Source of the DNA: Sideroxydans sp.
GTDB lineage: Bacteria; Pseudomonadota; Gammaproteobacteria; Burkholderiales; Gallionellaceae
Direction of reading: 5' to 3'
DNA: 64,000 nt
NCBI GenBank assembly: GCA_011620315.1
Contig: WOZO01000063.1
Coordinates: forward strand, 7,968-71,967
Part shown: one piece after another, positions 19,391 through 61,991 of the stretch
How positions within the stretch are numbered: the stretch's first letter is position 1
Layout: every line of letters starts with the position of its first letter
The notes under the pieces: model-generated
The model's database searches: none
What the model was told of the DNA's origin: nothing
The model's input: only the letters and a program-made list of their open reading frames with translations
Made by a program: the position numbers and the translations under genes

Positions 19391-19418
19391 AAATCCAATC
19401 ACACAACAGGAGTATGAA

Positions 19419-19559
19419 ATGAACGCAAAACGCTGCCCCCCCCCTGACGGTCGCCACCCGGCCATGGCCGACAACGGCAACATCACTATCTACGGCAGCG
19501 CGCTGCCGGGCCGTTACGACACGCCGTACAAAATCATCACGCGCAAGCTGGACAACTAA
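19419..19559 (+). pseudogene. Internally deleted Gram-negative porin remnant
   Basis: RBS ACAGGAG; MNAKR...PAMA|DNGNITIYG joined to GRYDTPYKIITRKLD, both resembling betaproteobacterial porin motifs. Confidence 0.55.
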
Positions 19560-19610
19560 CGTGTCAGTCCCATGGGTTCGATGAACCCAGATTGTCCGTT
19601 AGAAAAATCA

Positions 19611-19695
19611 CGTCATTCCGGCGCAGGCCGGAATCATGGCGTTGTCCGCTGCGCGGCGTATTTTTCATCGCCGGATACCGGCCTGACCGGAGGTC
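19611..19695. repeat. REP doublet (GTCATTCCGGCGCAGGCCGGAATC variant), degenerate
   Basis: cgtcattccggcgcaggccggaatc ... ggataccggcctgaccgga. Confidence 0.65.
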
Positions 19696-19909
19696 AGTCT
19701 GTCCTGAGTTGATCGAAGGGCCGGTATGACGGCCTAATGGACGATCCGGGATGAAGGCAGGATTTCGCCGGGCTATTCCCTGAATATCAGGCGGTAATTT
19801 GCGGCGTTCTAAATAATGACTTGGCAGTGCAAATCCCCCCCCCCGCATTAGCATCGTCAATCGCTACTGTTTTTGAGTAAGGCGATGTATTAGAAGCATT
19901 CCTTCAGCA

Positions 19910-22627
19910 TCACCAGGTCAGCCAACGCCGCACAAAGCGATTGTCGCGGCGGATCAGCCATCTTCTCCACTCGTCGCCCAGCAGAATCACAGCGGCGAAC
20001 GGCAAGACCAGCGACACCTCGAACCAGCCTATTGGCGCGGTGCCGAAGAAGGGTTGCAGGTAGGGCGCGCGCGAGATCGCGGCCACCAGTCCCAGCTCCG
20101 CCGCGATGCCCACCCAAATCAGTTTGTTGCGGAAGATGCCGGCGGACAGCATGCTTTCGCGGCGCGTGCGGCAGATCAGCACATTGGGTATCTGGCAGAT
20201 CACCACCGCCGCGAAGAATGCCGTGACGGCGGTGCGGTACAGCAGGCTGTCCGTCGGCAATTCCGCGCCCCATGTCCAGTCGCCCCGATGCAGCACTACA
20301 AAAAATACAAAGAACCCGGCGGCCGCCTGGATCATGCCGACGATGCCGTAGCTCCTGCCCAGCAGCGGCCAGGTGAGCAGTCTTTCGTCGCGGCGGCGCG
20401 GCGGCTGTTTCATCACATCATGCTCCGGCAGCTCGCGTCCCAATCCCAGCGCGGGCAGCAGGTCGGTGCCCAGGTCGATACTGAGGATCAGCACCACGGT
20501 CAACGCCAGCGGCGCGTCGATGGCGACAAAGGCGATGAAGGGCAATATCTCGGGCACGTTGCTGGTGAGGATGTAGGCGATGAACTTCTTGATGTTGGAG
20601 AAGACGGTGCGGCCTTCTTCGATGGCGTGCACGATGGTGGCGAAGTTGTCGTCCATCAGCACCATGTCTGCCGCTTCCTTCGCCACCTCGGTGCCGGATA
20701 GTCCCATCGCCACGCCCATGTCGGCGTTCTTCAGCGCGGGCGCGTCGTTCACGCCGTCGCCGGTGACGGTGACGATCTCGCCCTTCTTCTGCAGCGCTTT
20801 GACGATCTGCAGCTTCTGCAACGGCGTGGTGCGCGCGAACACCAGTTCGCGGCTATCCAGCAAGTCGGACAGTTCTTCCTTGCTCATCGTCTGCAACTGC
20901 TCGCCCACGACCACCCGCCCGTCGCCGGTGAACAGGCCGACCTGGCGGGCGATGGATTCGGCGGTGGTGTGGTAGTCGCCGGTGATCATGAACACGCGGA
21001 TTCCCGCGCTGCGACATTTGTCCACCGCATCGGCGATCTCGGGGCGCGGCGGATCGAGCATGCCGACCAGCCCCAGATAGATGAAGCCGTCTTCGCTGGC
21101 TGCCTCGGCATCGGTGGTCTTGTAAGCCAGCGCCAGCACGCGTTCGCCGCGCGCGGCCAGCACTTCGTACAACTCCATAGCTTTGCTGTGCGCTTCCTCG
21201 TCGAACGCGACCTGCTCGCCCCGCTGCATACGATGCGTGCATTTTTTGAGAACGATCTCCGGCGCACCTTTCATGTAGGCGATGTTGGGCTGGCCCGCCG
21301 CGCCCTGGTGCGTGGTGATCATGCGCTTGGTGGCGGAATCGAACGGGCTTTCGTGCAGACGCGGGAAACGTTCCGCCAGATCGCCTATTGCGTGCAGACG
21401 CTGCGCCAGCACCAGCAGCGCGCCCTCGGTGGGGTCGCCGAGGTAATGATGGTCGGTGAGGCGCGCGTTGTTGCACAACACCATGGCCGTCCATGCATCG
21501 CTGAAGCCTTCCGCCTGCGCCAGCCCGCTCTGGTAGGCAGACCACACGCGCAGTCCCAGCACCAGCGTGGCGACCCGCATCTGGTTCTGCGTGATGGTGC
21601 CGGTCTTGTCGGTGCAGATCACGGTGGTCGAGCCCAGTGTCTCCACCGCTTCCAGATTCTTGATCAGCGCGTTCTTCTTCGCCATGCGTTTGGAGGCCAT
21701 GGTCAGCGCCAGCGTTACCGTGGGCAGCAAGCCTTCCGGCACGTTGGCGACGATGATGCCGATGGCGAAGATCAGGCTGTCGGTGAAGGGATTGCCGAGC
21801 AGCACACTGAGCGCGAAGAACAGCAGACCGAGCGCGATGGCGATGGCGGAAATGACGCGGATAAAATGGCGCAGCTCTTTGCGGATCGGCGTGTCCACCG
21901 TGTCCGCCTCTTTGGTGAGCTGCACGATGCGGCCGATCTGCGTGTTCATGCCGGTGCCATACACCAGCGCGCGACCGTTGCCGCTTTGCACCAGCGTGCC
22001 GGAGAACACCATGTTGCGGCTCTCCAGCAGATTGTCGTGGGTACAGGCCAGCTTGCGCAACTGCGGTTCGCTCTCGCCGGTCAGCGAAGAATGGTCGACC
22101 TTGAGCCGGTTCACTTCCAGCAAGCGCCCGTCGGCCGGCACGCGGTCGCCTTCTTGCAGCAGGATCACATCGCCCGGCACCACCAACCGCGCTTCGATAC
22201 GCGCGACCTGCCCGTCGCGCCGGACCGTGATCATCTGCGGCAGCATGTTGCGGAAGCTCTCCATGATGCGTTCACTCTCGCGCTCCTGCACGTAGGTGAA
22301 CAGCGCGTTGAGCAGCACCACTGCCAGCAGCGCGACGCCGATGTAGAAGTTGCCTTCGCCCGGTCGGAGGTAATCGGCAAAGAACGCCAGCGAGGAACCG
22401 GCAATGAGCAGCAGCGCAAAGAAGTTGGTGAACTGGCGCAGGAATTTGACGAACTCCGGCGTCTCCTTGCGCACGCGCAATTCGTTGCCGCCGAACTCGG
22501 CCAGACGGCGCGCCGCCTCGGCCGCGCTCAGCCCTTCCCCGCTGCAATGCAGGCGCTGCTGCAAGGCCTCCAGCGGGATGCGATGCTGGTCGGCGGGCAC
22601 TGCCTTTGCATCAGTATGGTTCATCAC
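19910..22627 (-). CDS. Type II cation-transporting P-type ATPase (Na/K-ATPase-like motifs)
   Basis: TGES, IIVANVPEGLL, ICTDKTGT, MITGDY, TGDGVNDAPALK, ILSIDLGTD. Confidence 0.93.
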   Translation of the reverse strand: MMNHTDAKAVPADQHRIPLEALQQRLHCSGEGLSAAEAARRLAEFGGNELRVRKETPEFVKFLRQFTNFFALLLIAGSSLAFFADYLRPGEGNFYIGVALLAVVLLNALFTYVQERESERIMESFRNMLPQMITVRRDGQVARIEARLVVPGDVILLQEGDRVPADGRLLEVNRLKVDHSSLTGESEPQLRKLACTHDNLLESRNMVFSGTLVQSGNGRALVYGTGMNTQIGRIVQLTKEADTVDTPIRKELRHFIRVISAIAIALGLLFFALSVLLGNPFTDSLIFAIGIIVANVPEGLLPTVTLALTMASKRMAKKNALIKNLEAVETLGSTTVICTDKTGTITQNQMRVATLVLGLRVWSAYQSGLAQAEGFSDAWTAMVLCNNARLTDHHYLGDPTEGALLVLAQRLHAIGDLAERFPRLHESPFDSATKRMITTHQGAAGQPNIAYMKGAPEIVLKKCTHRMQRGEQVAFDEEAHSKAMELYEVLAARGERVLALAYKTTDAEAASEDGFIYLGLVGMLDPPRPEIADAVDKCRSAGIRVFMITGDYHTTAESIARQVGLFTGDGRVVVGEQLQTMSKEELSDLLDSRELVFARTTPLQKLQIVKALQKKGEIVTVTGDGVNDAPALKNADMGVAMGLSGTEVAKEAADMVLMDDNFATIVHAIEEGRTVFSNIKKFIAYILTSNVPEILPFIAFVAIDAPLALTVVLILSIDLGTDLLPALGLGRELPEHDVMKQPPRRRDERLLTWPLLGRSYGIVGMIQAAAGFFVFFVVLHRGDWTWGAELPTDSLLYRTAVTAFFAAVVICQIPNVLICRTRRESMLSAGIFRNKLIWVGIAAELGLVAAISRAPYLQPFFGTAPIGWFEVSLVLPFAAVILLGDEWRRWLIRRDNRFVRRWLTW

Positions 22628-22759
22628 GCCCCTTCCAGTCGGGTCGAGGCTGCGCCAGCCGCCCGCAACCGATGGCCCACTGTACTACACGGGAAGGAAG
22701 ATGGAACCGCAAGCGCCGAGCGCATGGTCAAAGCGCGCCGACTCCGCTACATTCCGCGC

Positions 22760-23089
22760 ATGAAATCGCGCCGCAAACATTACCACGTCTATGTCATCGA
22801 ACTGTCGAAGGACGTGCTGTACGAAGCCAAGTTCAAGAAGTGCAACCCGTACTACCGCCCCGGCATGCCCTGCGTCTACGTCGGCATGACCGGACTCGAC
22901 CCCGACATCCGCTTCGACAAACACAAGGCCGACATCCAGTCCAACCGCTATGCAAAGCAGTACGGCCTGCGTCTGCTGCCCGACCTGTACGAAGCCTTCA
23001 ACCCGATGAGTTACGACGACGCCTGCGACAAGGAAGTCGAGGTCGGCATCGACCTGCGCAGTGCGGGGTTCGGGGTGTGGCAGGCTTGA
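22760..23089 (+). CDS. Small GIY-YIG-like protein
   Basis: HVYVIEL...CVYVGMTG...RFDKHK...E; 109 aa from ATG 22760. Confidence 0.7.
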   Translation: MKSRRKHYHVYVIELSKDVLYEAKFKKCNPYYRPGMPCVYVGMTGLDPDIRFDKHKADIQSNRYAKQYGLRLLPDLYEAFNPMSYDDACDKEVEVGIDLRSAGFGVWQA

Positions 23090-23098
23090 GTCGCGGCC

Positions 23099-23281
23099 TC
23101 AGAAGTTAGCGATCACCAGCGCCTGGCCGCCCAGCAACAGGAAATAGCCCGCGCCCCAGCTTATGCTTTCCGTCAGCGCGTGCGCCATGCTCTGCCTTGC
23201 ATCCTTGCTCAGCAGGATGCCGACTATCATGACCGCAGCACCGGCCAACGCCAAAGTCATCATCGAAAAGAGTTCATCCAT
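23099..23281 (-). CDS. 60-aa membrane protein, paralog A
   Basis: RBS GGAGG; MDELFSMMTLALAGAAVMIVGILL...TESISWGAGYF; paralog at 27373. Confidence 0.65.
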   Translation of the reverse strand: MDELFSMMTLALAGAAVMIVGILLSKDARQSMAHALTESISWGAGYFLLLGGQALVIANF

Positions 23282-23430
23282 CTCATACCCTCCGTCGTTC
23301 GTTGCGCGCGGCATGTCCACCACCGCCGACCCCTGTAAACTAGCGCCAAGTTGTTGCAACTGCGTGATGCGTGCATGACATTCGCGCGACACCCCATGAC
23401 GCGTCCTGCCGACAACCCGACATCCATTAG

Positions 23431-24899
<1,469 letters not shown>

Positions 24900-48073: not shown

Positions 48074-49036
48074 CTAAAACTGTCGCGTTGCCGCGAAGCG
48101 CGCCAATTCTAACAGAGCGCGTTTGAATTGAGTATCCGCCAATGCAGAAATTGCGGCACATCCCGCCTCGGCTTCCAGCAACGCCTGTTGCCGCGTGAAT
48201 TCCAAAGCACCGGTCGCCTCGATGATGGCCTGCACCTCCGGCAGACGGGCCACATCACCCTCTTCAATGGCGGCGCGCACCACGGTGGCCTGCTCGGGTG
48301 TGCCGTGCTGCATGGCGTGGATCAGCGGCAGCGTCGGTTTGCCTTCGGCCAGATCGTCGCCCAGATGTTTACCGGTTTGCGCTTCGTCGGCGGAGTAGTC
48401 CAGTACGTCGTCGATCAACTGGAAGGCCGTGCCCAGATGCATGCCGTACTTCGCCACGGCCTCTTCTTCCGCCGCCGATGCCTTGCCGAGGATGGCCCCC
48501 AGACGCATCGCCGCCTCGAACAGCTTGGCCGTCTTGCAATGGATGACGCGCATGTAGTTCGCCACATCCACATCGGCGTCGTGACAGTTCAAGAGTTGCA
48601 ACACCTCGCCCTCGGCGATCACGTTGGTCGCGGCGGCCAACACCTCCATCACGCGCATCTCGCCCACGTCCACCATCATCTGGAACGCGCGGGTATATAA
48701 AAAGTCGCCCACCAGCACGCTGGCCGCGTTGCCGAACAGCGCATTGGCCGTCTCGCGCCCGCGACGCAGTTCGGATTCATCCACCACATCGTCGTGCAGC
48801 AAAGTCGCGGTATGGATGAACTCCACCACTGCCGCCAGATCATGGTGATGTGAGCCCTTGTAGCCAAAGGCCTGTGCGGACATCAGCACCAAAGCGGGAC
48901 GCAAACGCTTGCCGCCGCCGTTGACGATGTACTCGCCGACTTGGTTGACTAGCACCACTTCGGAATGCAGACGCGCGCGGATCACCGCATCGACTGCGGC
49001 CATGTCCGGCGCAAGCAACTCTTTCAGACTATCCAA
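48074..49036 (-). CDS. ispB: Octaprenyl-diphosphate synthase
   Basis: GGKRLRP, LLHDDVVDES.LRRG, KTA.LF, FQLIDDVLDY, DDLAEGK.TLP. Confidence 0.95.
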   Translation of the reverse strand: MDSLKELLAPDMAAVDAVIRARLHSEVVLVNQVGEYIVNGGGKRLRPALVLMSAQAFGYKGSHHHDLAAVVEFIHTATLLHDDVVDESELRRGRETANALFGNAASVLVGDFLYTRAFQMMVDVGEMRVMEVLAAATNVIAEGEVLQLLNCHDADVDVANYMRVIHCKTAKLFEAAMRLGAILGKASAAEEEAVAKYGMHLGTAFQLIDDVLDYSADEAQTGKHLGDDLAEGKPTLPLIHAMQHGTPEQATVVRAAIEEGDVARLPEVQAIIEATGALEFTRQQALLEAEAGCAAISALADTQFKRALLELARFAATRQF

Positions 49037-49286: not shown

Positions 49287-49571
49287 ATGAGCACCACCAC
49301 CATACGTTTGCCTGAAGACCTGAAAGCACGCATTTCAGCAGCAGCCAAACGGGCCGGCACAACAACCCACGGTTTCATCCTTGAAGCCATCGCAGAAAAA
49401 GCCGAGCAGGAAGATCTGCGTGCCGCATTCGATGCAGAAGCAGAAGATCGTTATGCACGTATCGCCGCCACCGGCAAAACCATTCCCTGGCAGGAAATGC
49501 GCGGCTATCTGGATGATCGTCTTGCCGGTAAAGAAGTAAAACGCCCGACCGCCCGCAAACTGGCACGCTAA
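49287..49571 (+). CDS. Ribbon-helix-helix antitoxin
   Basis: TTTIRLPEDLKARI..AA...G.T.H.FILEAI.E...W.EM..YL. Confidence 0.88.
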   Translation: MSTTTIRLPEDLKARISAAAKRAGTTTHGFILEAIAEKAEQEDLRAAFDAEAEDRYARIAATGKTIPWQEMRGYLDDRLAGKEVKRPTARKLAR

Positions 49572-49573
49572 TC

Positions 49574-49870
49574 ATGGCGCGCATCGAACTGGCAGCGGAA
49601 GTCGGGGATGACTTTGATCGCATCCTCGATCACTTTTCCCAATATCAGGTCGAGAATCCGGCATTGCGCATTCGCGAGATCATCGAGGCATTCAACGTGC
49701 TGGAATACAACCCCATGATCGGCCGCCCCACAAACAACGACAAGCGAGAGCTGGTGATCGGGCAACGCTCGCACGGCTACGTGGCTTTGTACCGCTACGT
49801 GGCCGAAGTCGATACTGTCTTTATCCTTGCCGTGCGCAGCCAGCAGGAGGCCGGGGGTGCAGGGATTTAG
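49574..49870 (+). CDS. ParE/RelE-family toxin
   Basis: DFDRILDH...P.IGRP...RELVIG..SHGYVALYRY....V.ILAVRSQ.EAG. Confidence 0.88.
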   Translation: MARIELAAEVGDDFDRILDHFSQYQVENPALRIREIIEAFNVLEYNPMIGRPTNNDKRELVIGQRSHGYVALYRYVAEVDTVFILAVRSQQEAGGAGI

Positions 49871-49937: not shown

Positions 49938-51905
49938 CTACTCATATTTTTTTCGCTGGCTTTCAGCCGTCTCGTTAGGATTGTTCAAATACGCAATCAA
50001 CTCTTCAAGAATAATCAAATCGCAAAGCTTTGCCCCAGACTCCAGATCATTCAATACATGCGTAACACCATGATATTGGCGCTGATCCGCATTCTCAGGC
50101 AACAACAATGAAGTTATGCCATAGCGCTCTTTGTAGGTATCGCCTGTGCTCCATGCCACAGACAAATCGATGTCTTTAATATTTTTGTCTTGGTTGTCTA
50201 CATCCTCAACCAAACCGTCAAGGCAGAGCTTGTACTCAAGAATGCGGGGGGGCGTTGTTTTTCCGTTAAGTGCATATGCGGTTTCCGAAGGGACACCTAA
50301 TGGATTCTCTTCCTTGTCGTATATATATAAATTGACATCCAAATCGAAGGAAATCTTAAAAAGTCCATCGTAGACGAAGCGTTCATTTGTTGACATCACA
50401 TTGATGCCTCGAATTACACCGCCAGCGATTAATTGATGAAAGAGTGCAATTACATCTTGCTCTCGCGTCGGCACAGATGTGATCGATACACGCTCAACAG
50501 GCTTGAAAAAATGGTGGTTTGTTAAGAGTAATGGGGCCGCAGTTTCATGAGCAAGCATCGCAGTCTTCCAGTCACTTATTTCAAGCTCCCTTACTAAGTC
50601 TGGTGCAACACCTGTGTTCGCTTTAAGAGAAGCGCGGAACTTTGACAAGTGAGACTCGGTTATCATTCGCGCAACGCTTTTTGCAAAATCTGCCAGTTCG
50701 CGGTGGAAACCTTTCCGCCCCAAGTCAGGGGTGTAATTATCAAAATGAACGAGAAAGTGAACTTGGTTTTGACGGCCAATATTTCTATTGAGGGGCACTT
50801 GAATTATTTCACCTTGAGGCATGTTATTCGCAGCAAGCTGAATGCCGCTTGTCAGAACCTTCCGGCCAGAACGTATACCCAAAGAATCGTTGAATCGGTT
50901 CCATAGTTTTGCGGTGTACCCAAATTCAACGCTAACTGTAGGTGTGTGATTCGCAATAACTTCACGCTCTTCATCGTCTAGCGCGACTCCAAGCAGAGCC
51001 TCTAATTCGCTGGAATTCCACGCGTCATATATAAAATCCAAATTCTTGTACTTGTCTGGCATTTTTCTGCCAGCGCCGAATTTCTTCAAAATGGTTTCTT
51101 GCTCATGTACTAACTCACGAAACGACGCTTTCTTCCCTGCGTCATCGTGCAACCAAAGATATGCAGTGCCCTGCGAAGATGCTTTAGTAATTTTGTTATT
51201 GAAACGAACCTTAATATTTACGTGTATTGCTTTGTCAGGAATGATTGAGCCTAACCCAGTCTTAATTGAAAGTATTTTCAACCACTTCTCGGCAGTATCG
51301 GCGCATAACCAACTCAATTGTTTTGGATGAGTGCTTTCGTCGAAGCGCACAGTAATAGAAACGCCCCGATCAGTACTTCCAAACGCAGGGTCGTCATGTT
51401 GTGATACGTCGGGCTCGACTTTTGGGCTACCACCAACAGCCCTATTTTTTATCCAGTTCCTGGCACCGACAATTCTTCCTGACACCTCAAAACCCGGGGC
51501 CTTGCTTGATATTCGCAAATAGTTAAATCCGTATGCAAGATAAGTCGCGCCAACACCTTTGTGACCGCGAGTATTGCCAGATTTGAACGAAAGGCTTGGT
51601 GCGAGAAATAGCTTGAATTGATCTTGATCTAATCCGATTCCGTTATCGGTAACAGTTAAAGTATTCTCATCTAAATCAACGAAAATATCGATAGTGGGTT
51701 TATAGACATCGCCTTTACCAGCTGCTTTCTCATTTTCAGCGCGTGCTTCCACAGCATCAAGCGCATTTTGAATTAGTTCACAGAATGGGTCATACCAGCC
51801 AACATAGGAACTGAGAATGTTCTCAATTTCTCTTTTGAGTATGTTGGTCGCATCGCTCAGGTTATTGTTTTTTGCGTCGAGTGGATCGAATGGCGTGAAG
51901 CTCAT
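49938..51905 (-). CDS. GHKL/MORC-type ATPase fused to putative PD-(D/E)xK nuclease domain
   Basis: ELIQNALDA, VTDNGIG, GHKGVG; C-terminal EQDVIALF...YDG...LEYK...VAW; AT-rich relative to flanks. Confidence 0.75.
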   Translation of the reverse strand: MSFTPFDPLDAKNNNLSDATNILKREIENILSSYVGWYDPFCELIQNALDAVEARAENEKAAGKGDVYKPTIDIFVDLDENTLTVTDNGIGLDQDQFKLFLAPSLSFKSGNTRGHKGVGATYLAYGFNYLRISSKAPGFEVSGRIVGARNWIKNRAVGGSPKVEPDVSQHDDPAFGSTDRGVSITVRFDESTHPKQLSWLCADTAEKWLKILSIKTGLGSIIPDKAIHVNIKVRFNNKITKASSQGTAYLWLHDDAGKKASFRELVHEQETILKKFGAGRKMPDKYKNLDFIYDAWNSSELEALLGVALDDEEREVIANHTPTVSVEFGYTAKLWNRFNDSLGIRSGRKVLTSGIQLAANNMPQGEIIQVPLNRNIGRQNQVHFLVHFDNYTPDLGRKGFHRELADFAKSVARMITESHLSKFRASLKANTGVAPDLVRELEISDWKTAMLAHETAAPLLLTNHHFFKPVERVSITSVPTREQDVIALFHQLIAGGVIRGINVMSTNERFVYDGLFKISFDLDVNLYIYDKEENPLGVPSETAYALNGKTTPPRILEYKLCLDGLVEDVDNQDKNIKDIDLSVAWSTGDTYKERYGITSLLLPENADQRQYHGVTHVLNDLESGAKLCDLIILEELIAYLNNPNETAESQRKKYE

Positions 51906-52066: not shown

Positions 52067-53338
52067 CTATACCTTCTCTATTGCTCGATCCCGCTGCAGA
52101 TACAAACCGATCCCCACGCCCAAAACGCTCAGCGCCACCACATACCAGGCAGGCACCTGCGCCCCCAGCACCGGCAGCAGCAGGCTGACCAGCACCGGCG
52201 TCATGCCGCCGAACACGGCGTAGGCCACGTTGTAGGAGAAGGACAGACCGGAGAAACGCACGGCGGGCGGGAATTGCATCACGGCGGCGCTGGGCACCAC
52301 GCCGATCACGCCGACGAAGAAACCGTTCAGGGCGTACCACATATATAAGTGTTCCGTGCCGCTCGCCAGTTGCTGGTAGAGCAGCCATGAGGTCGCGCCC
52401 AATGCCACACAGCCGTAGGCGAGTACGCGCCCCGCGCCGTAGCGGTCGGCCAGCGCGCCGAACACGATGCAGCCTATGGTCAGCGCCAGCGTGGCGAAGC
52501 TGTTGGCGGTGAGCGCGGTGGCGCCGGGGATGGCGAACAGCTTCTGCATCAGCGTCGGTGTCATCAGGATCATCACCACCACCGCGGCGGAGAGCAGCCA
52601 GGTCATCAGCATGGTGAGCACCACGGCCGGACGGTGCGCGCGCACTACTTTCTTCAGCGGTAGTTCATCGGCCAATTCCTGGCGGGCTTGCATCTCTTTG
52701 AACACCGGCGTCTCTTGCAGGTACTGGCGTAGCCACACCGCGACCAGACCGAACACACCGCCGAGGATGAACGGCACGCGCCAACCTTCGGCCAGCAGTG
52801 CGGCGGGGTCGTACGCATGGTTCACCGCCGTCGCCACCAGCGAGCCGAGCAGGATGCCGCCGGTCAGCCCTGCGGTGAGCGTGCCGCAGGCGAAGCCGAC
52901 ATGGCGTGGCGGCACATGTTCGGCCACGAACACCCAGGCACCCGGCACCTCGCCGCCGATGGCCGCGCCCTGCATCACGCGCAGCAACAGCAGCAGCAAG
53001 GGGGCTGCGATTCCCAAAGCGGCATAGGTGGGCAACAGACCGATGAGCAGGGTCGGTACTGCCATCAGCAGGATGCTGAGCATGAACATGCGCTTGCGGC
53101 CGAACAGGTCGCCGAAGTGCGCCATGATGATGCCGCCCAGCGGCCGCGCCAGATAACCGGCGGCGAAGATGCCGAAGGTCTGCACCTGACGCAGCCAGTC
53201 CGGCATGTCGGGCGGGAAGAACAGTTGCGAGATGGCCGCCGCGAAGAACACGAAGATGACGAAGTCGTAGAACTCCAGCGCGCCGCCCAGTGCGGCCAGC
53301 GTCAGCGTGCGGTAATCATTGCGCGTCAGGCTGGACAC
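52067..53338 (-). CDS. MFS transporter (metabolite:H+ symporter, ProP-like)
   Basis: GGALEFYDFVIF, RPLGGIIMAHFGDLFGRK, GGEVPGAWVFVAEH; GTG 53338 after GGAGG. Confidence 0.92.
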   Translation of the reverse strand: MSSLTRNDYRTLTLAALGGALEFYDFVIFVFFAAAISQLFFPPDMPDWLRQVQTFGIFAAGYLARPLGGIIMAHFGDLFGRKRMFMLSILLMAVPTLLIGLLPTYAALGIAAPLLLLLLRVMQGAAIGGEVPGAWVFVAEHVPPRHVGFACGTLTAGLTGGILLGSLVATAVNHAYDPAALLAEGWRVPFILGGVFGLVAVWLRQYLQETPVFKEMQARQELADELPLKKVVRAHRPAVVLTMLMTWLLSAAVVVMILMTPTLMQKLFAIPGATALTANSFATLALTIGCIVFGALADRYGAGRVLAYGCVALGATSWLLYQQLASGTEHLYMWYALNGFFVGVIGVVPSAAVMQFPPAVRFSGLSFSYNVAYAVFGGMTPVLVSLLLPVLGAQVPAWYVVALSVLGVGIGLYLQRDRAIEKV

Positions 53339-53936
53339 GTTTCCTCCGCAAAGCATATTGCAGGTTCACCTTGATGGTCACCCACAGCGCATAGATGGCC
53401 AGCGGCGCGTCGATCAGGTAGTCCCACAGGTTGGTCGATTCGAGCAGGTTGAAACTCCAGCCGGTCGCGGCCAGCGCGAACACCAGCGGCAGCAGGTAAA
53501 AGCCGCGCCGCATCAGCCACAGCGCGAGCAGCGCCAGCATCAACAGCAGCCCGACACCGCCATAACCGGAACGGTACGGGTCGAGCGAGCCCAGTCCCAG
53601 CGCGAACGGATACAGCAGCAACGCCAGCACCGCGAGGAAGCCGAGCAGCGCACTGCGTTCGCGTGCATTCCATTTCGGCGGCATATTGAACAATCTTGCA
53701 TACAGCGCGGCAGACAGCAGCAGCATGCTGGTGATGCTCAGATCGCCCACCATGCCGCGCAGCCAGATCGCTGGCGACCATCCCGCTATCGGGAACATCA
53801 CCAGCACATACCCCAGCCCAGCCAGCAATGCGCGGCGCTTGCCATCGAGACGCTGCACATATGGCAGACGCAACGCCAGCAGCAACCACACCAGCGCCAA
53901 ACCGCTCAAGCCCATCCAGTCGGTGAACAACATCAC
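53316..53936 (-). CDS. Polytopic membrane protein (candidate partner of the sialidase-like enzyme)
   Basis: 206 aa, ~6 hydrophobic helices, 4-nt overlap with upstream gene. Confidence 0.75.
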   Translation of the reverse strand: MMLFTDWMGLSGLALVWLLLALRLPYVQRLDGKRRALLAGLGYVLVMFPIAGWSPAIWLRGMVGDLSITSMLLLSAALYARLFNMPPKWNARERSALLGFLAVLALLLYPFALGLGSLDPYRSGYGGVGLLLMLALLALWLMRRGFYLLPLVFALAATGWSFNLLESTNLWDYLIDAPLAIYALWVTIKVNLQYALRRKRVQPDAQ

Positions 53937-55321
53937 TTGCCTCCCTTCGCGCCAAGCAGTTTCTGCATCCAGCGCGCGTCGATGCGCACATGTTTGATGA
54001 AGGTACGGTTCCAGGTATAGACCAGATGGATGTCGCCGTTATGCGTCTGGATCATATAAGGATAGGAGAACTCGAAATGGCAGTTGCCGCCGCCCACCAC
54101 TTTGGGTCGTGCCGACTCGACATAGGGGGCGAGCGTTTGCGCATCCGCCCTGCGCAGCAGGGGATCGCTGCTGCGCAGCAATTTTTCGGTGACATCCAGA
54201 CAGGCACCCTCGGACATCTCCTTGTCGCGCAACACGTTCATCTCTTCCAGCCGGTGCAGTTCACGCCAGCTGGCACCGCCGTCTTCCGACAATTGCAGAC
54301 TCAGCGATTCGCGGCCGTGCTCCTGGTCGTTCAGCACCGCCAGCATGCGGCCGTCTTCCAGTGCCAGCGCGGTCAGCGCGGCGTCGGGATTGCGCAGGGA
54401 ATTCTTGTGCGGTGCCTCCCAGTGACGGCCGCCGTCCCCGCTCGCCATCACCACCACGCGCTTGTCCGCGTCCTTGCCGGAATAGCGATTGAGCACCAGC
54501 GCCGCTTTCTCGCTGCGCACCAGCACCACCGGCTGCAATGTGCCCTGTCCGCCCGCTGCCAGACGCTGTTTGTCGATCACCTTGCCTGCTTGGTCCAGAC
54601 GCAATATCTCGGAGAATTTGCTGATGAACTCGTGATACACCGGCAGGCCCATGGTGCCATCGGCATAGAAGAACGGTGCACCTTTGACCAGCGTGCTGAT
54701 GTTGATGAAGGGCGAGGTGACCAAGCGGCGCGGGGTGTTCCAGCTTTCACCGTCGTCGTTCGATGTCATCAATGTGATCGAGCTGCCCGCCCAGCCGCCC
54801 AGCGACACCGTGACATAAAACAGCCACAGCTCGCCGTTGGCCGCGCGCACCGCCACCGGGTTGCCGACCTTGGCGATGTAGCGATGCAGGCCGAGCTGCG
54901 TGCTCTTGCGTCCCGCCACTTCCTGCTCGCGCCACCAGGTGTTCGCCACCGGATCGTAGAGCGCGCTGTTGATGGTGACATCCGCCGCGCCTTCGCGGCT
55001 GCCGGAGAACCAGAACGCGCGTAGGCGTCCGTCCTTCAATTCCACCAGCGAGGCGGCATGGGTGGAAGTGTGCTGGCGGCTGGACACCAGATGCGCTTCC
55101 AGCTTGCCCATCACCACGCCCGGATCGGGTGCCTCGGCGCGGCGACCGCGACGCTTCTTCACCACCGGCGCGGGTGCGGGTTCGGCATCCAGCACCACCG
55201 GCTCCGGCAGGCGGAAATCAAAACCGACTTGCCAGCTCGCCGCCTTGGACAATGCCAAGGTGAACGCCGCCAGCACGAACGCCAGCAAAGCGAGGCGCTT
55301 ATATTTCCCCATCAACGGCAC
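53933..55321 (-). CDS. Membrane-anchored sialidase-like (BNR/Asp-box) protein
   Basis: N-terminal TM; THAASL.EL.DG, Asp boxes SNDDGESW, SGDGGRHW, SEDGGASW; FSYP, YTWNR..IKH. Confidence 0.85.
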   Translation of the reverse strand: MPLMGKYKRLALLAFVLAAFTLALSKAASWQVGFDFRLPEPVVLDAEPAPAPVVKKRRGRRAEAPDPGVVMGKLEAHLVSSRQHTSTHAASLVELKDGRLRAFWFSGSREGAADVTINSALYDPVANTWWREQEVAGRKSTQLGLHRYIAKVGNPVAVRAANGELWLFYVTVSLGGWAGSSITLMTSNDDGESWNTPRRLVTSPFINISTLVKGAPFFYADGTMGLPVYHEFISKFSEILRLDQAGKVIDKQRLAAGGQGTLQPVVLVRSEKAALVLNRYSGKDADKRVVVMASGDGGRHWEAPHKNSLRNPDAALTALALEDGRMLAVLNDQEHGRESLSLQLSEDGGASWRELHRLEEMNVLRDKEMSEGACLDVTEKLLRSSDPLLRRADAQTLAPYVESARPKVVGGGNCHFEFSYPYMIQTHNGDIHLVYTWNRTFIKHVRIDARWMQKLLGAKGGK

Positions 55322-57111
55322 CCTTCCTCATTCTGTTTTTCTTCTCCATCGCCTGCCTGAACGCGCAACAGCCATTCGCGCACGAACAGTTGCTGCATCA
55401 CATCGCCGCCCAGCATGGCTTTGATCTCTGCATCGTTATGGCGGCCGCGTATCTCCAGACGCGAGCCGAGCACTTCACATTCCGCACAGGGTTGTTCCTG
55501 CAAAGGCAGTTGCACGGCGAACAGTGCATAGTTCGCCTTGAGTTCATCCACCGCGAGCGGCGGCTGCGCATGGTAACCGTGAATGTAGGCGGCGGGCAGC
55601 AGGAATCGATAGTCTTCCCAGCTGGCGCGGAAATCGCACGGCACCCACACATCCTTGTTCTGCGTCGCCTGCTGTGCGGCGCTGTCGTAACGGCCTGCCG
55701 CACCGTCGAAAGGGCGCAGCAACATGGCCAGCACCAGCAAGGTCAGCAAGGCCACGACATTGCTCAAGCCGCGCGTCCAGTGTGCCGCATAGATCGCCAG
55801 CGCAACCAGCAACAGGGTGAACGCCAGCACTGACCAGAACACCGCGTCGTACAAGCCGCCCATCTGCGCTTGCAGGTTGTACGCGAGCCAGCCGAACAAG
55901 GCGAGCACCGCGACCGAAGCCAGCAGGCTGGCGACGAAGGCGGCACGCGGGATGCGCTGCCAGTTCAGGGCCAGCAGCAAGGCCACGCCCGGCATGGCAT
56001 CCAACAGATAACGCGCCGAGCGCTGGCTGGGAATGGCGAAGATCACGAACAGGGCTATCATCCACATCCACAACAGGCGCTCTTCGTCGCTCATGCGGTA
56101 GCGGCGGTGCCAGGCGACCACGAACAGCGCCAGCACCGGGAAAGCGAGCACACCGGCGTTGAGCGGATAGCCGAGCAACAGCACCCACACACTGCTGCCG
56201 CCCCACAATAATTTCGCCCAGTAGCTGCCGCCGTGCGGGTCGAACTTGGCGGCGTTCTCGCCCAGCACGAATTCCTGCCACACCGCCTGCGGATCGGGAT
56301 CGAGCGCGAACCACAGCGCGAACAGCGCCAGCGCGACGACGCCGACCATCACCAGTTTCGTCACATCGTGCAGCAGGAAAGGCCGCAAGCGATAACGGCG
56401 CTGGTACAGATACCACCAGCTCAGCGCGATGCCGACCGGTGCCAACAAGGCGAACGATTTGTAGAGCAGGCCGATGCCCGCAAATATGCCGAGCAACAGC
56501 GGCACGACGAAGCGCGAATCGAAAGCGCGCTCGCGCCAGTACAGCAAAGTGAAGAACGGCAGGAACAGCCAGAACGTCTCGGCCGGATTGACCAGATAGG
56601 GCCGACCGAAACGGTAAGTGCTGAAGAAGGCGAGGAAGACCAGCGCCGCCGTTGCACCCACCGCACATTCACCACCCAGCTTGCGCCCGAGCAGGAACAC
56701 CAGCCAGGCGGTGAGCAAGGTGTAGAGCACGCTGGGATAGCGCAGATGCCAGCGGTCCCATTGCGTTGCCCATCCGGTGGAGACGATGCCCTGCCAGAAC
56801 AGCAGCGGCGGTTTGGTGTTGCGCATATTGTCCAGATTCGACTGCAAGGGCAGCCAGTCGCCGCTCAGCGCGGTGAGGCGGGTGATATGCGCGTACACGT
56901 TCTCGTCGCCGTTGCGCGGGCTGTGCAGACCGTCCAGCGCGTAAAAGTAGACGAACACGGCCAGCGCCACAGCCGCCAGATATTGCAGCGGACGCAAATT
57001 GAGGTGAATCCAGCGAAATGCTGCGTTTGCCCCCTCTCCCCACGGGGGAGGGTTGGGGTGGGGGGAGCGCATGCGCTCGACGGCAACATGTCTCATCGGG
57101 TCGCGCAACAT
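55312..57111 (-). CDS. ArnT/PMT-like (GT-C fold) glycosyltransferase; start uncertain
   Basis: NGDE.VY..ITR, TKPPLLFW, LRYPS, GLLYKS, many TM helices. Confidence 0.8.
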   Translation of the reverse strand: MLRDPMRHVAVERMRSPHPNPPPWGEGANAAFRWIHLNLRPLQYLAAVALAVFVYFYALDGLHSPRNGDENVYAHITRLTALSGDWLPLQSNLDNMRNTKPPLLFWQGIVSTGWATQWDRWHLRYPSVLYTLLTAWLVFLLGRKLGGECAVGATAALVFLAFFSTYRFGRPYLVNPAETFWLFLPFFTLLYWRERAFDSRFVVPLLLGIFAGIGLLYKSFALLAPVGIALSWWYLYQRRYRLRPFLLHDVTKLVMVGVVALALFALWFALDPDPQAVWQEFVLGENAAKFDPHGGSYWAKLLWGGSSVWVLLLGYPLNAGVLAFPVLALFVVAWHRRYRMSDEERLLWMWMIALFVIFAIPSQRSARYLLDAMPGVALLLALNWQRIPRAAFVASLLASVAVLALFGWLAYNLQAQMGGLYDAVFWSVLAFTLLLVALAIYAAHWTRGLSNVVALLTLLVLAMLLRPFDGAAGRYDSAAQQATQNKDVWVPCDFRASWEDYRFLLPAAYIHGYHAQPPLAVDELKANYALFAVQLPLQEQPCAECEVLGSRLEIRGRHNDAEIKAMLGGDVMQQLFVREWLLRVQAGDGEEKQNEEGCR

Positions 57112-57112
57112 G

Positions 57113-57616
57113 TCAGTGCTTGTGTTCTCGCAGCGCAGCTGCCTTGAACTTGAGGCGGCCGAAGGTCCAGATGTCGTTGAGCAGGAAGTTCAGCACGCTG
57201 GTGACGCCGATGGCGATGAAGTTGGCGATCAGATAATAGACGTGCGGTGCCAGCAGGTTGGTGAACATGAACTGCAGCGCAATGCTCACGCCGCAGGCCA
57301 GCGTGTATTGTCCGAACTGCACGACCCACGGACGATGATGCAGTTCGACGCGATCACGCCAGGTCCACAGCCGGTTCCAGAAGAAGTTGTTCAGGGTCGC
57401 GAGGAAGATCGCCACCGACAGCGAGGCATTGAGCAGCAGCCAGTCCACTTGGCCCGCCACGTTCGCCACATGAAAGACATGCTCCTGCATGACATACAGC
57501 GCCCCCTGGTTGACCACGATACCGGATACGCCGACGGTGCCGAATTTCAGAAAACGGAGGGAGAAGATGCGCCGCAGCAGCGACGCCGTGCGCATGCGGA
57601 GCTTGAACGGCGTCAT
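57113..57616 (-). CDS. GtrA-family flippase-like protein
   Basis: FLKFGTVGVSGIVVN, NNFFWNRLWTW, NFLLNDIWTF. Confidence 0.88.
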   Translation of the reverse strand: MTPFKLRMRTASLLRRIFSLRFLKFGTVGVSGIVVNQGALYVMQEHVFHVANVAGQVDWLLLNASLSVAIFLATLNNFFWNRLWTWRDRVELHHRPWVVQFGQYTLACGVSIALQFMFTNLLAPHVYYLIANFIAIGVTSVLNFLLNDIWTFGRLKFKAAALREHKH

Positions 57617-58830
57617 GCGGCGGGTTGCGCCTGCAACAGCGCATGCGCATGCGCCAGCACTTGCTGCGGCGTGATGCGTTTCAGGCACTGGTTGTCGCCG
57701 TCGCACGGCGAGTTGCGGTGGTTGTACGCCGTCAGGCAGGGCGAGCAGGACAGGCCGGTGAACAGGCAATGGATGTTGGGCGCGAGCGGGCTGTACAGCG
57801 CGGGCGTCTCCGGCCCGAAGAACACCAGCGTCGGCAGGGAAGTGAGCGCGGCGAACTGCCCCGGCCCGCCGTCGTTGGTCACCAGCAGCGAGGCGCGCTG
57901 GAACACGGCCAGCAGATGACGCACGTTGCGCGTGTAGCCGGTAAGGTCGATGCAGTGCTCGTGTTTGCAATGCGCCACGATGCGTTTGGCCAGCGGCTTG
58001 GCGTCCGGCAGACCGATCAGACCGAGCACATATCCTCCCTGCAGCAATTCATCGCACAGTTGTTCGTAGTATTCCGGCGGCCAGGCGCGGATGGGCAGGA
58101 TGCCGCCGTCGGGATAGACCAGCACCATCTTCTTGCCGCCCAGCACCGGATAGTCTTCTTCCAGCTGCGCGATCTCGCGCGCCACTTCGCCTTCCTCGAA
58201 CTGCAGCAGCGGCGGTGCGCCGACTGCGCCGGGCATTCGCTTGGCGATGGGGCGACCGCCCGACTCGATGGCCTCGACCATGGTCAGAAACTGCTGCGAC
58301 AGATGCTGGTAGGGGTTGTACATGACCTTGCGGTTCATGAACGAACCGCGGTACAGACCTTCCTGTGTGTGCGCCTCGAAACCGACGCGCACTTTCGCGC
58401 CGGACAGGTAGGAGAAGATGCTGCTGATGCGCGTGAACAGTTCGCAGTCGATCACCACGTCGAAGTCCAGCGCGCGCATCCTGCGGATGGCTTGCAGGCT
58501 ATCCCCGGCCAGATCGCCCAGCGCCTTGTCGTTGAGGGTGATGACGTTCTCTTTGGGCATCACGCCCTGCAGGTCGAGCACTTCGCGATTCTTGCGGAAC
58601 ATCAGCATGTACAGCTCTGCGCCGGGATAGCGGCGTTTGAGGTCGGCGAACATGGGCTGCGCCAGCACCAGGCTGCCCATCTCGGACAGGAGCACGATCA
58701 GGATGCGGCGGGGCTGCCCGACCTTGGCAGGCGCGACGAACGCCGACTTGACGCGCTCATAAAGCGACAAGACCGCGCAGATGGGGATGCCTGCCAGCCG
58801 GTCGACGGCTCTCTGGAAATCGATGTTCAA
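57613..58830 (-). CDS. Glycosyltransferase family 9 (heptosyltransferase-like)
   Basis: TTG start 58830; RILIVLLSEMGSLVLA.P...LK..YP.A, RAWPPEYY, IDLTG, LVTNDGGP...AAL, FFGPE. Confidence 0.88.
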   Translation of the reverse strand: MNIDFQRAVDRLAGIPICAVLSLYERVKSAFVAPAKVGQPRRILIVLLSEMGSLVLAQPMFADLKRRYPGAELYMLMFRKNREVLDLQGVMPKENVITLNDKALGDLAGDSLQAIRRMRALDFDVVIDCELFTRISSIFSYLSGAKVRVGFEAHTQEGLYRGSFMNRKVMYNPYQHLSQQFLTMVEAIESGGRPIAKRMPGAVGAPPLLQFEEGEVAREIAQLEEDYPVLGGKKMVLVYPDGGILPIRAWPPEYYEQLCDELLQGGYVLGLIGLPDAKPLAKRIVAHCKHEHCIDLTGYTRNVRHLLAVFQRASLLVTNDGGPGQFAALTSLPTLVFFGPETPALYSPLAPNIHCLFTGLSCSPCLTAYNHRNSPCDGDNQCLKRITPQQVLAHAHALLQAQPAA

Positions 58831-58962
58831 TGGATAGTCCCTGGCTTGAAGAAAACAGAATGCGGCAGTACCGTCATTCGGCGCGCCGGAATTATCGGCT
58901 AAAGCGCCATCTCGGACAAGCCGGGATATCCCGGCTGTTCGCGCCACCCCACTTGGTGTAAA

Positions 58963-60279
58963 TTGCCGCGCATGGACGCAACCAGCACAGCCCCGCAAAC
59001 CACCCACCCGCCCGCCTTCCTTGGAAACTACCGTATCCTGCGCAAGATCGGGCACGGCGCGACCAGCGAAGTGTTCCTGGGATTCGACCCGTTCAACAAG
59101 CGCGAGGTCGCGATCAAGGTCATCAAACAATCTTTTCTTGAAGATTCGCGCAACGGTCGCCAGAACCGCAAACACCTGCAGAACGAGGCCACGCTGGCCG
59201 GCACGCTGAACCATCCGCACATCGTCGACATGTACGAGGCGGTGATCGGCGAGGACATCAGCTATATCGCCATGGAGTTCGTGCCCGGCGGCACGCTGGA
59301 ACAGCATATCCATTCCGACAATCTGCTGCCGCTGGATGCCGTGGTGGAGCGCATGTACGAATGCTGCCGCGCGCTCAACTACGCGCAATACAACGGCGTG
59401 ATCCACCGCGACATCAAACCGGCCAACCTGCTGCTGGACGAGAACGGCCAGATCAAGATCTCGGATCTCGGTGCCGCGGTACGCATGGACGTCGAGCAGA
59501 CGCAGAGCAATGTCGGTTCGCCAAACTATATGTCGCCGGAACAGGTGCGCGGCGAATCGCTGTCGCACCTGACCGACATCTATTCGCTGGGCGTGGTGAT
59601 GTACCGCCTGCTCACCGGCCACTCGCCCTACAGCCCGAAGAATCTGGCGCATCTGTACCAGCAGATCATGAACGAGATGCCGCCCATGCCCACCTCGCTG
59701 CGCAAAGACCTTCCGCCGCAACTGGAACGCATCGTGATGCGCGCCCTGCAAAAGCACCCGGCGGACCGCTACGCCAGCTGGCGCGAGTTCGGCGACGATC
59801 TGGCCGCACTGGGCCATTTCGAGAAGAGCGATCTGGAGGTGGCCGAGAACGAGAAATTCAATATCCTGCGCAAGATGAAGTTCTTCACCGACTTCAGTGA
59901 TCTGGAACTGTGGGAAGTGCTGCGCATCGCCGAATGGCATAAACAGCCGGAGAAAACCGTGCTGATGCGCGAGGACGAAATGAGCGACGCCGTCTATTTC
60001 ATCATCGACGGCAGCGTCAGCGTCACGCGCGGCACACGATTATTGATCGCGCTGCGCGGCGGCGACTGCTGCGGCGAGATGGCCTACATCCGCGGCAAGC
60101 AACTGCCGCGCTCGGCCACCGTCACCGCCAACACCGAAATCTCGGTGATGAAGCTCGACCCGCAGCAGCTCGCGCAGCTTTCCGACAGCTGCCAGAGCCA
60201 TTTCAACCAGGCTTTTCTATATGTGCTGGCGGAACGCCTGCGCCTGGCCGACGAGCGCATCGCGCGTCTGGTCAGTTAG
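58963..60279 (+). CDS. Ser/Thr protein kinase with C-terminal cNMP-binding domain (paralog 1)
   Basis: [42 protein letters not shown]; GEMAY...RSATV. Confidence 0.92.
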
Positions 60280-60311
60280 AATCTCGCCCTTACCAAACGG
60301 AGGAACGCCAC

Positions 60312-60698
60312 ATGGCACAAAAAACCATCATCCAAACGCCCGACGCGCCCGCCGCCATCGGCACCTACTCCCAGGCGGTGCGCGTCAACGATACCGTCTA
60401 CCTGTCCGGCCAGATCGGCCTCGACCCGGCCAGCATGCAGATGGTGGATGGCATCGAGGCGCAGGTGCACCGTGTGTTCCAGAACCTGCGCGCCGTCGCC
60501 AATGCCGTCGGCGGTAGCCTGGAAGACGTGGTCAAGCTCAACATCTTCCTCACCGACCTGGGCCATTTCGCCAAGGTCAACGAGATCATGGCCACCTATT
60601 TCCGCCAGCCCTACCCGGCGCGCGCCGCCGTCGGCGTCGCCAGTCTGCCGCGCGATGCGCTGGTGGAGGCGGACGGAGTGATCGTGCTAGGTGATTGA
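60312..60698 (+). CDS. ridA: RidA/YjgF-family deaminase
   Basis: [39 protein letters not shown]. Confidence 0.92.
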
Positions 60699-60710
60699 GA
60701 TGGAACAGCA

Positions 60711-61991
60711 GTGACACACCCAAAATCGATCGGCAAATACGCCATCCGGCAGGTCCTCGGGCACGGCACCACCAGCGTGGTCTATCGCGGTTTCGATCCC
60801 TTCGCCAACCGCGAAGTGGCGATCAAGGTACTGAAGCAGGAGATCCTCAACGACGCGCGCATGGGCAAGGCGTTCCGCCGCCAGCTCGACAATGAAGCGT
60901 CGCTGGTCGGCCGTCTGGAACACCCGCACATCGTTTCGATCTACGACGCGCTGATCAGCGACGGCGAGAGCTACATCGTGATGGAATACGTCAGCGGCGG
61001 CACGCTGGAAAAATTCACCGAACCGGACAGCCTGCTGCCCGTCGACCGCGTGATCGAGTACATGTTCAAGTGCTGCCGCGCGCTGAACTACGCGCAGTAC
61101 AACGGCGTCATCCACCGCGACATCAAGCCGGCCAACATGATGCTGACCGAGGACGGCGACATCAAGATCTCCGACATGGGTGCCGCCCTGCTGCTTGATC
61201 TGGAACAGACCCAGGTCAGCAACCTCGGTTCGCCCAACTACATGTCTCCGGAGCAACTGGGCGGTGAAACCCTCACCCACCAGACCGACATCTACTCGCT
61301 GGGCGTGGTGATGTATCGTTTGCTGTGCGGGCAGGCGCCCTACCGCGCGCAAAGTCTGGCCAGCCTGTGCCACCAGATCCTCAATACGCCGCCCGCGCCG
61401 CTGCGCACCTATTGCGCAGACATCCCGCCAGAGCTGGAGCAGATCGTGGCGCGCGCGATGCAGAAAGACAAAAGCCTGCGCTACCAGAACTGGCGCGACT
61501 TCGGCAACGACCTCGCGGCGCTGGGCCACTACAAACATTCCGATCCCGCCGTCAACCAGACGGAAAAATTCACCACGCTGCGCGGCATGTCGCTGTTCAG
61601 TGATTTTTCCGATACCGAACTGTGGGAGATCCTGCGCATCGGCGAATGGCAGAAGCGACCGGCGCAGACCGTGCTGATGCGCGAGGACGAGCTGGGCGAC
61701 GATTTTTACATCATGATCAGCGGCACGGTGAACATCACCAAGAACGGCTACCTGCTCAACCTGATCAGCCGCGACGATTGCTTCGGCGAGATGGCCTACA
61801 TCAGCGGCCGCGTCGTGCATCGCTCGGCCACCGTCACGGCCGGCACCGATGTGACGGTGATGAAAATCGCGCCAAAATTGCTGAACGAATTGTCCGACCA
61901 CTGCCAGCTGCATTTCAATCAGGCCTTCCTGCGCGTGATGGCCGACCGGCTGCGCATGGCCGATTCGCGCTTCGCCAAACTGGCCAGCTAG
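60711..61991 (+). CDS. Ser/Thr protein kinase with C-terminal cNMP-binding domain (paralog 2)
   Basis: [37 protein letters not shown]; FGEMAY...RSATV. Confidence 0.92.
   Translation: MTHPKSIGKYAIRQVLGHGTTSVVYRGFDPFANREVAIKVLKQEILNDARMGKAFRRQLDNEASLVGRLEHPHIVSIYDALISDGESYIVMEYVSGGTLEKFTEPDSLLPVDRVIEYMFKCCRALNYAQYNGVIHRDIKPANMMLTEDGDIKISDMGAALLLDLEQTQVSNLGSPNYMSPEQLGGETLTHQTDIYSLGVVMYRLLCGQAPYRAQSLASLCHQILNTPPAPLRTYCADIPPELEQIVARAMQKDKSLRYQNWRDFGNDLAALGHYKHSDPAVNQTEKFTTLRGMSLFSDFSDTELWEILRIGEWQKRPAQTVLMREDELGDDFYIMISGTVNITKNGYLLNLISRDDCFGEMAYISGRVVHRSATVTAGTDVTVMKIAPKLLNELSDHCQLHFNQAFLRVMADRLRMADSRFAKLAS

Follow-up and report, generated by a model that had tools for sequence, protein, structure and literature searches.

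A putative two-subunit Kdo hydrolase relative and a glycosyltransferase tied to it in an operon of the iron oxidiser Sideroxydans sp.

The operon described here belongs to Sideroxydans sp. (Gallionellaceae) and lies in a window of 64,000 nucleotides, by which we mean the whole stretch of DNA analysed (assembly GCA_011620315.1, contig WOZO01000063.1, positions 7,968 to 71,967). Open reading frames (ORFs) and Pfam matches place six tightly packed genes at 52067-58830 of the window, all on the minus strand, which encode, in order, a family 9 glycosyltransferase (GT9), a GtrA protein, an ArnT-like glycosyltransferase of the GT-C class, a membrane-anchored sialidase-fold (BNR_2) protein, a small protein of about seven helices and a transporter of the major facilitator superfamily (MFS). 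[quoted passage not shown] At the level of sequence there is solid support for the pair as a known type of enzyme in a lineage new to it, set in an undescribed operon variant. A first-pass annotation of the window had named the same six coupled genes and domains, which Pfam and the junction overlaps bear out; the span it gave, 53316-58830, leaves the MFS gene at 52067 outside, although its text listed that gene. The six genes are as follows:

57613..58830, minus strand: GT9 glycosyltransferase, 405 residues, TTG start (PF01075, 8.5e-19)
57113..57616, minus strand: GtrA-family small membrane protein, 167 residues (PF04138, 2.7e-20)
55312..57111, minus strand: GT-C glycosyltransferase, 599 residues (PF02366 PMT, 8.8e-10)
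53933..55312, minus strand: BNR_2 protein, candidate catalytic subunit, 459 residues (PF13088, 4e-86)
53316..53933, minus strand: candidate small polytopic subunit, 205 residues, about seven helices (no Pfam or NCBIfam match)
52067..53338, minus strand: MFS transporter of the metabolite/H+ symporter type, about 423 residues (MFS_1, PF07690, 5.8e-30)

Published KdoH1/KdoH2 enzymes consist of a sialidase-like protein with one N-terminal transmembrane (TM) helix and a seven-TM partner; their genes are adjacent and co-transcribed, both are required for activity, and they act at the periplasmic face (PMC4402001, PMC3573668, PMC3245313, PMC12856342). In Helicobacter pylori they are HP0579/HP0580 (Stead et al. 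2010, as relayed by PMC3245313 and PMC4402001), and in Francisella KdhA/KdhB are equated with KdoH1/KdoH2, FTN_0495/FTN_0494 (Zhao & Raetz 2010; Okan et al. 2013, PMC3573668). When two H. pylori genomes were searched with the profile of the BNR family, exactly one gene was found in each, at E 2.8e-69. It encodes a 372-residue TM-anchored BNR protein, preceded by a dihydroorotase-like gene and followed after 6 nt by the gene of a 183-residue polytopic protein. Since that downstream gene is HP0579, named Kdo hydrolase subunit 1, the BNR gene is HP0580. The window protein matches HP0580 by BLASTP at 9e-43 with 30% identity, residues 83-453 against 62-371, which covers the whole propeller, and the two differ mainly by some 50 residues that form a helical insert in the window protein.

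The window protein is anchored by a single N-terminal hydrophobic helix (residues 10-28), followed by a linker rich in Lys and Arg, a six-bladed sialidase-fold propeller and the 50-residue helical insert, which carries two conserved Cys. Because Lys and Arg residues precede the anchor helix, the propeller should face the periplasm by the positive-inside rule, and the two invariant Cys of the insert fit such a location. The AlphaFold2 (AF2) model is a six-bladed propeller (predicted local distance difference test, pLDDT, 83; predicted template modelling score, pTM, 0.82), and the best solved structures in a fold search with it were sialidases of glycoside hydrolase family 33 (GH33; E ~1e-13). 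Similarly, the family profile matches sialidases at ~1e-6 and aligns R334 with the sialidase Arg that precedes the last Asp-box, while a pairwise sequence search of the PDB with the window protein gave no significant match. With GH33 exo-sialidases (NanH, NanA/B/C, NEU2) the protein has in common the six-bladed propeller and the Asp-boxes; it differs from them in its membrane anchor, its predicted need of a membrane partner and the apparent replacement of the N-terminal RIP-type Arg. Catalytic subunits of Gallionellaceae in general have the disordered Lys/Arg-rich linker (residues ~45-70) and the insert with its two invariant Cys (~361-410). Both elements are missing in H. pylori and in most other members of the family, and a comparable helical insert occurs at two further loci, L011 and L017.

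When HP0580 is aligned with the family, R250, R334 and Y432 prove invariant and H85, E107, D111 and Y226-H227-E228 nearly so, and all of these polar residues are present in HP0580. The order Asp, Glu, Arg, Arg, Tyr would correspond to that of a GH33-type site, as judged from the alignment. It is very improbable that the BNR protein is instead a non-enzymatic propeller, binding sugar or serving as a scaffold that aids the GT-C or the export of lipopolysaccharide (LPS): the residues of this ordered set are conserved and all of them are common to the active H. pylori enzyme, and most carriers of the pair have no GT-C to assist. Such a role would be in keeping with a first Arg of the sialidase triad that is not evident, and with the loss of several conserved polar residues from the divergent family member at L017.

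The family of the small subunit is marked by the motifs LRGxxGDLS, YPFALGxGxxDPYRxG and ESxNLWDYLIDxPL. It also has invariant charged residues in or beside the helices (R60, D65, D119, R122, E166, D172 and D176), which argue that this protein is more than a passive anchor. An alignment of 40 family sequences was compared by hhalign with an eight-sequence alignment of HP0579, and the two families matched end to end over 173 colinear columns (probability 86.7%, E 4.3e-6), with the C-terminal motif ESxNLWDYLIDxPL aligned to SNFQILDSLLDFPL of the HP0579 family. The score of 43.4 compares with about 10 for reversed alignments and with 21.5±2.7, at most 27.1, for forty block-shuffles. For the small subunit AF2 gave a poor model (pLDDT 64), with which a fold search found no match. 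The domain also occurs in fusions of 856 (P0309), 434 (P0351 and P0384) and 423 residues (P0332) from marine Gammaproteobacteria, Planctomycetota and metagenomes, in which the extra 200-600 residues have no Pfam match and hence give no functional hint.

By these comparisons both subunits have homologues in the enzyme of H. pylori, the catalytic one clearly and the small one distantly. The first-pass annotation had proposed that the sialidase-fold protein and its small membrane neighbour are paired as in Kdo hydrolase, and had considered that similarity to the known subunits or the catalytic residues might turn out to be missing. The pairing is upheld by the HP0580 and HP0579 matches, similarity was found for both subunits, and R250, R334 and Y432 are in place. 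As in H. pylori, the TM-anchored sialidase-fold subunit lies directly upstream of the small polytopic one, and the conserved polar residues are common to both systems, whereas the Lys/Arg-rich linker and the insert with its Cys pair are found in the window protein and not in HP0580. The H. pylori genes are separated by their 6 nt and those of the window overlap; moreover, the H. pylori pair is not next to a GT-C, GT9 or GtrA gene, the next gene there encoding another membrane protein. With Francisella KdhA/KdhB the window pair has in common two components (both required there), one with a single TM helix and a sialidase-like domain and the other a 7-TM partner, and the gene overlap is 8 bases in Francisella and 1 base in the window.

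In the tree of catalytic subunits HP0580 nests inside the family and not outside it; it stands on a long branch with a deviating amino-acid composition, and its exact position is uncertain. It is conceivable, though we give it distinctly less credence than Kdo trimming, that the pair is a KdoH-family enzyme acting on another substrate (Ko, a third Kdo, a capsule Kdo linker, or a sugar of the pseudaminic/legionaminic acid type, Pse/Leg) on LPS or another envelope glycolipid. Identity to HP0580 is only 30% and that branch is long, the putative first Arg of the sialidase site is not conserved, and the small-subunit family is large, with 1033 clusters at 50% identity extending to Desulfobacterales and Planctomycetota, which leaves room for divergent specificity. 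However, HP0580 falls within the family and retains all of the family-conserved residues, the architecture and the gene coupling are the same as in the characterised enzymes, and a target in lipid A or the inner core of LPS is indicated by the GT9 and ArnT-like GT-C partners.

The distribution of the pair was surveyed in 400 evenly drawn genomes at class level (Gammaproteobacteria) and 201 evenly drawn genomes at order level (Burkholderiales). The small subunit is present in 16 and 13 of these, respectively (~4-6%). At class level a BNR homologue lies directly upstream on the same strand in 13 of the 14 loci fetched, with a typical overlap of 1-13 nt, and at order level in 11 of 12, the twelfth having it 2 kb away, so that both surveys together give direct adjacency in 24 of 26 loci. 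The BNR protein and the small subunit are an evolutionary unit. No GT9, GtrA, GT-C or MFS gene stands near the pair at any class-level locus, and the pair is therefore the conserved core of the arrangement. Carriers include Polynucleobacter spp., Dechloromonas denitrificans, D. hortensis, a metagenome-assembled genome (MAG) of Neisseriaceae and Lucinoma symbionts, in which the proteins go under the database names hypothetical protein, exo-alpha-sialidase or sialidase family protein. AT-rich members of the small-subunit family came from environmental MAGs only, with none from Legionella or Francisella. The only surveyed small-subunit homologue that has no adjacent BNR gene (genome G081, locus L007, 7936-12954) has an N-terminal extension, at 246 residues in all, and lies directly downstream of the gene for a 1411-residue protein.

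Of the 201 order-level genomes, exactly five have an orthologue of the window GT-C (46-60% identity, E<=1e-150), in each case directly upstream of the pair. Besides the window, the carriers are a congener (G431), a genome of another Gallionellaceae genus (G485), arranged as GT9-GtrA-GT-C-pair, and two Polynucleobacter species, in which the GT-C and the pair form an isolated three-gene unit between unrelated genes. P. asymbioticus is a carrier of this three-gene unit, and Dechloromonas denitrificans has the pair only. The hypergeometric probability that all five fall among the 13 pair-bearing genomes is ~5e-7, uncorrected for shared ancestry, and the BNR proteins linked to a GT-C form one clade (support 98/95). 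The GT-C was thus never found without the hydrolase pair in the 201 genomes, whereas the pair is often found without the GT-C, which is the asymmetry expected if the GT-C acts on the product of the hydrolase. No mention of an obligate GT-C partner of Kdo hydrolase was found in the searchable literature.

A shared operon without interdependence would explain the linkage by common regulation of envelope remodelling, the GT-C being a further paralogue of ArnT, one that modifies the core or a phosphate of lipid A regardless of trimming. The genome does have four GT-C genes of the ArnT/PMT_2 type, most carriers of the pair lack any GT-C, and one order-level genome (G543) keeps GT9-GtrA without a functional GT-C or the pair. 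We nevertheless hold this explanation to be unlikely, as in the 201 genomes the GT-C orthologues are never apart from the pair and always abut it, the Polynucleobacter unit stands alone among genes of other kinds, and the sole lineage that has lost the pair has also truncated its GT-C. In that lineage the operon is decayed (G543, locus L061, 5144-8490): GT9 (9e-167) is intact, as is GtrA, of the GT-C a 150-residue N-terminal stump is left, the pair is gone, and a convergent gene for an ArnC-like family 2 glycosyltransferase (GT2) follows the stump.

The GT-C itself is distantly ArnT/PMT-like and keeps the DExxYA motif (as GDENVYAHI) and the KPPL motif, as does the true ArnT of the genome. It scores 47.4 bits with the ArnT model of NCBIfam, for which the cut-off is 567 bits, and a pairwise PDB sequence search with it returned nothing useful. 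That it might be the ArnT of this genome was rejected because a full arn cluster (ArnT-like, 252 bits; ArnB; ArnD) stands on another contig (C107) of the source assembly, which has 2.95 Mb in 233 contigs. The cluster, at about 17066-24625 of that contig, encodes ArnT-like, ArnB-like, ArnC-like and ArnD proteins, and two further PMT_2 GT-C genes stand back to back at 726-4038 of contig C140. Judged by its four ArnT/PMT_2-type GT-C genes, the genome encodes at least four predicted periplasmic lipid-linked-sugar transferases. In contrast to ArnT, the window GT-C falls below the ArnT cut-off, lies outside the arn cluster and is tied to a Kdo hydrolase relative.

Known GT-C modifiers that use undecaprenyl-phosphate sugars include ArnT with ArnC, Rhizobium RgtA-D with RgtE and the GtrA-like RgtF, Francisella FlmK and Bordetella LgmB. 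Like these, the operon has a GT-C with DExxYA and KPPL motifs and a GtrA-type protein alongside. The GtrA protein scores 73.2 bits with PF04138, above the gathering score of 26.1 bits, and is a putative flippase of polyprenyl-phosphate sugars. In the congener G431 (locus L049, 4529-6514) GT9-GtrA is replaced by a GalE-like epimerase and an ArnC/PgfS-like GT2 on the opposite strand, so that, as in the ArnT/Rgt type of system, an ArnC-like GT2 and a sugar-nucleotide epimerase stand beside the GT-C. The replacement occupies the slot between the flanking gene for a kinase with a cyclic-nucleotide-binding domain and the GT-C gene, and the GT2 has 318 residues with two C-terminal TM helices. These front genes look like a cassette swapped in before the same GT-C/hydrolase/MFS operon, and the window GT-C is closer to that of the other genus, which keeps GT9-GtrA (60% identity), than to that of the congener (54%). 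An epimerase with an ArnC-like GT2 is the usual equipment for the synthesis of undecaprenyl-phosphate sugars, and its presence in the congener speaks for a donor of the GT-C that is lipid-linked. The source genome has no orthologue of the congener's GT2, the best match being the ArnC of the arn cluster at 29% identity.

Taken together, the genes suggest the following sequence of events. Kdo2-lipid A or core-lipid A would be flipped to the periplasmic side, where the anchored propeller and its 7-TM partner would most likely hydrolyse the outer (side-chain) Kdo, as HP0580/HP0579 do; this step is proposed because of the homology to the H. pylori enzyme. The GT-C would then most likely take its sugar from an undecaprenyl-phosphate carrier that GtrA has flipped and attach it at the site which the removal of Kdo exposes. 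Candidates for this site are the Kdo that stays behind and the 4' region of lipid A next to it. Action of the GT-C after trimming is suggested by the gene dependence and by the precedent of H. pylori, in which removal of Kdo is needed for efficient removal of the 4'-phosphate (PMC3245313).

GT9 resembles an LPS heptosyltransferase and probably adds a cytoplasmic core sugar. Its best NCBIfam match is heptosyltransferase II at 85.9 bits, below the cut-off of 134.6 bits, and the protein is not assignable to WaaC, WaaF or WaaQ, the equivalog cut-offs of which are not reached; among solved structures E. coli WaaF (1psw, 2.4e-13) comes nearest. The genome has four GT9 genes, two of which, elsewhere, are better GT9 genes than that of the operon. 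At its C-terminus (57613-57700 of the window) the protein has a four-Cys motif, CSPC...C...C, which could bind a metal. The MFS protein scores 287.7 bits with TIGR00883 (cut-off 443 bits). Its gene follows the pair at L002 and L049, the closest relatives, and is absent at L051 and in Polynucleobacter, and it is probably a lineage-specific add-on.

The operon could also be read in a bolder way, which we consider doubtful. After removal of the outer Kdo, the GT-C would install another sugar, delivered by a lipid carrier, on the freed site; the front cassettes (GT9-GtrA in the source genome, epimerase and ArnC-like GT2 in the congener) would set which sugar this is; and the MFS transporter would re-import the free Kdo, which could be re-activated directly by KdsB. 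If true, such Kdo salvage would save energy, which suits an energy-limited chemolithoautotroph, and both the exchange of Kdo for another sugar and a Kdo salvage transporter would be new.

Several observations weigh against trimming of Kdo by the pair with subsequent decoration by the GT-C. The profile of the small-subunit family had no match at E<=1 in the H. pylori genomes, and the link of this subunit to HP0579 is weak, being visible by profile-profile comparison only. Homology to Francisella KdhA/KdhB is inferred through H. pylori only. No clear counterpart is seen for the first Arg of the sialidase triad: R, K, E or S occurs at position 106, and the N-terminal strand carries a His (H85). 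Given the 30% identity, long branch and odd composition of HP0580, specificity could differ between the two enzymes. No undecaprenyl-phosphate sugar synthase is found in the operon, and in the genome as a whole an ArnC-like GT2 was found in the arn cluster only. The link between GT-C and pair comes from perhaps two or three independent lineages. In addition, the searchable literature yielded no LPS structure for Gallionellaceae.

The gene junctions agree with an operon, since each is an overlap or a 1-nt gap. From GT9 to MFS they read ATGA, TGAcATG, TGATG, TGATG and an overlap of at least 23 nt; the GtrA ATG overlaps the GT9 stop in ATGA and the ATG of the small subunit overlaps the BNR stop in TGATG. 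Because its relatives open with MGKY, the most likely start codon of the BNR gene is the ATG at 55312 (459 residues) and not the GTG at 55321. The small subunit has 205 residues in the database call, with its ATG at 53933 (ORF span 53316-53936, 205/206 residues), and for the MFS gene, which overlaps the small-subunit gene at the 3' end of the latter, the GTG at 53338 is the probable start codon (ORF span 52067-53356). NCBIfam assigned a named equivalog to none of the six proteins. Their database homologues bear the names Sideroxydans, Sideroxyarcus and Gallionella, which places the window in Gallionellaceae. In Sideroxyarcus emersonii the six genes stand in identical order, with ~60% protein identity, and are followed directly by ispB; the arrangement is therefore conserved and not due to chance. 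Upstream of the operon, one regulatory feature was considered:

58891..58919, minus strand: candidate for a sigma-70-like promoter (TTGTCC-17-GATAAT), some 60 nt upstream of GT9

This candidate sits in the 132-nt gap between GT9 and a divergent kinase gene and is argued by its position alone, as a promoter and terminator scan of the region gave sites at chance level. On the divergent side, 58963-61991 encodes two paralogous Ser/Thr kinases with C-terminal cyclic-nucleotide-binding domains, which flank a RidA-like gene; the kinase/RidA-like trio adjoins the operon in S. emersonii too, one such kinase adjoins it in the congener, and a regulatory link of these kinases to the operon is possible. 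On the other side, the window has ispB at 48074-49036 (polyprenyl synthase match, 7e-84), and a stretch of low GC content (49938-51905, and 49287-49870; 0.43-0.49 against ~0.63 in the surroundings), which encodes a 655-residue protein with weak GHKL ATPase matches, lies between the MFS gene and ispB. Because the MFS gene directly precedes ispB in S. emersonii, the low-GC stretch looks like an insertion.

In the searchable literature, Kdo hydrolases are described for H. pylori, Francisella and Legionella only, and a paper of December 2025 lists the enzyme for H. pylori and F. novicida only (PMC12856342). The view of the first-pass annotation that such a pathway is undescribed in this lineage fits that record. 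The addition of a lipid-carrier-linked sugar, which it had also put forward, stands as far as gene context goes, namely by the linkage of the GT-C, the GtrA protein, the cassette of G431 and the decay in G543.

Until now, Kdo hydrolase has been regarded as peculiar to a small set of pathogens (Helicobacter, Francisella, Legionella), and its role has been discussed in terms of immune evasion. The two-subunit relative described here is a widespread module of free-living proteobacteria, found in ~4-6% of the sampled genomes, and its named free-living carriers include Sideroxyarcus emersonii and several species of Polynucleobacter and Dechloromonas. H. pylori is a host-adapted pathogen, whereas the organism of the window is a free-living iron oxidiser, and the wide occurrence in free-living bacteria means that the primary role of the enzyme is probably in envelope physiology and not in host evasion. 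With one GT-C clade strictly dependent on the hydrolase, ordered LPS editing in the periplasm has a concrete case that can be tested. Moreover, the operon supplies candidate genes for the decoration of the inner core or lipid A, and the analysis gives names to two large families annotated as 'sialidase family protein' and 'hypothetical protein'. As such, the operon suggests a "trim, then decorate" step in the building of the outer membrane of free-living bacteria.

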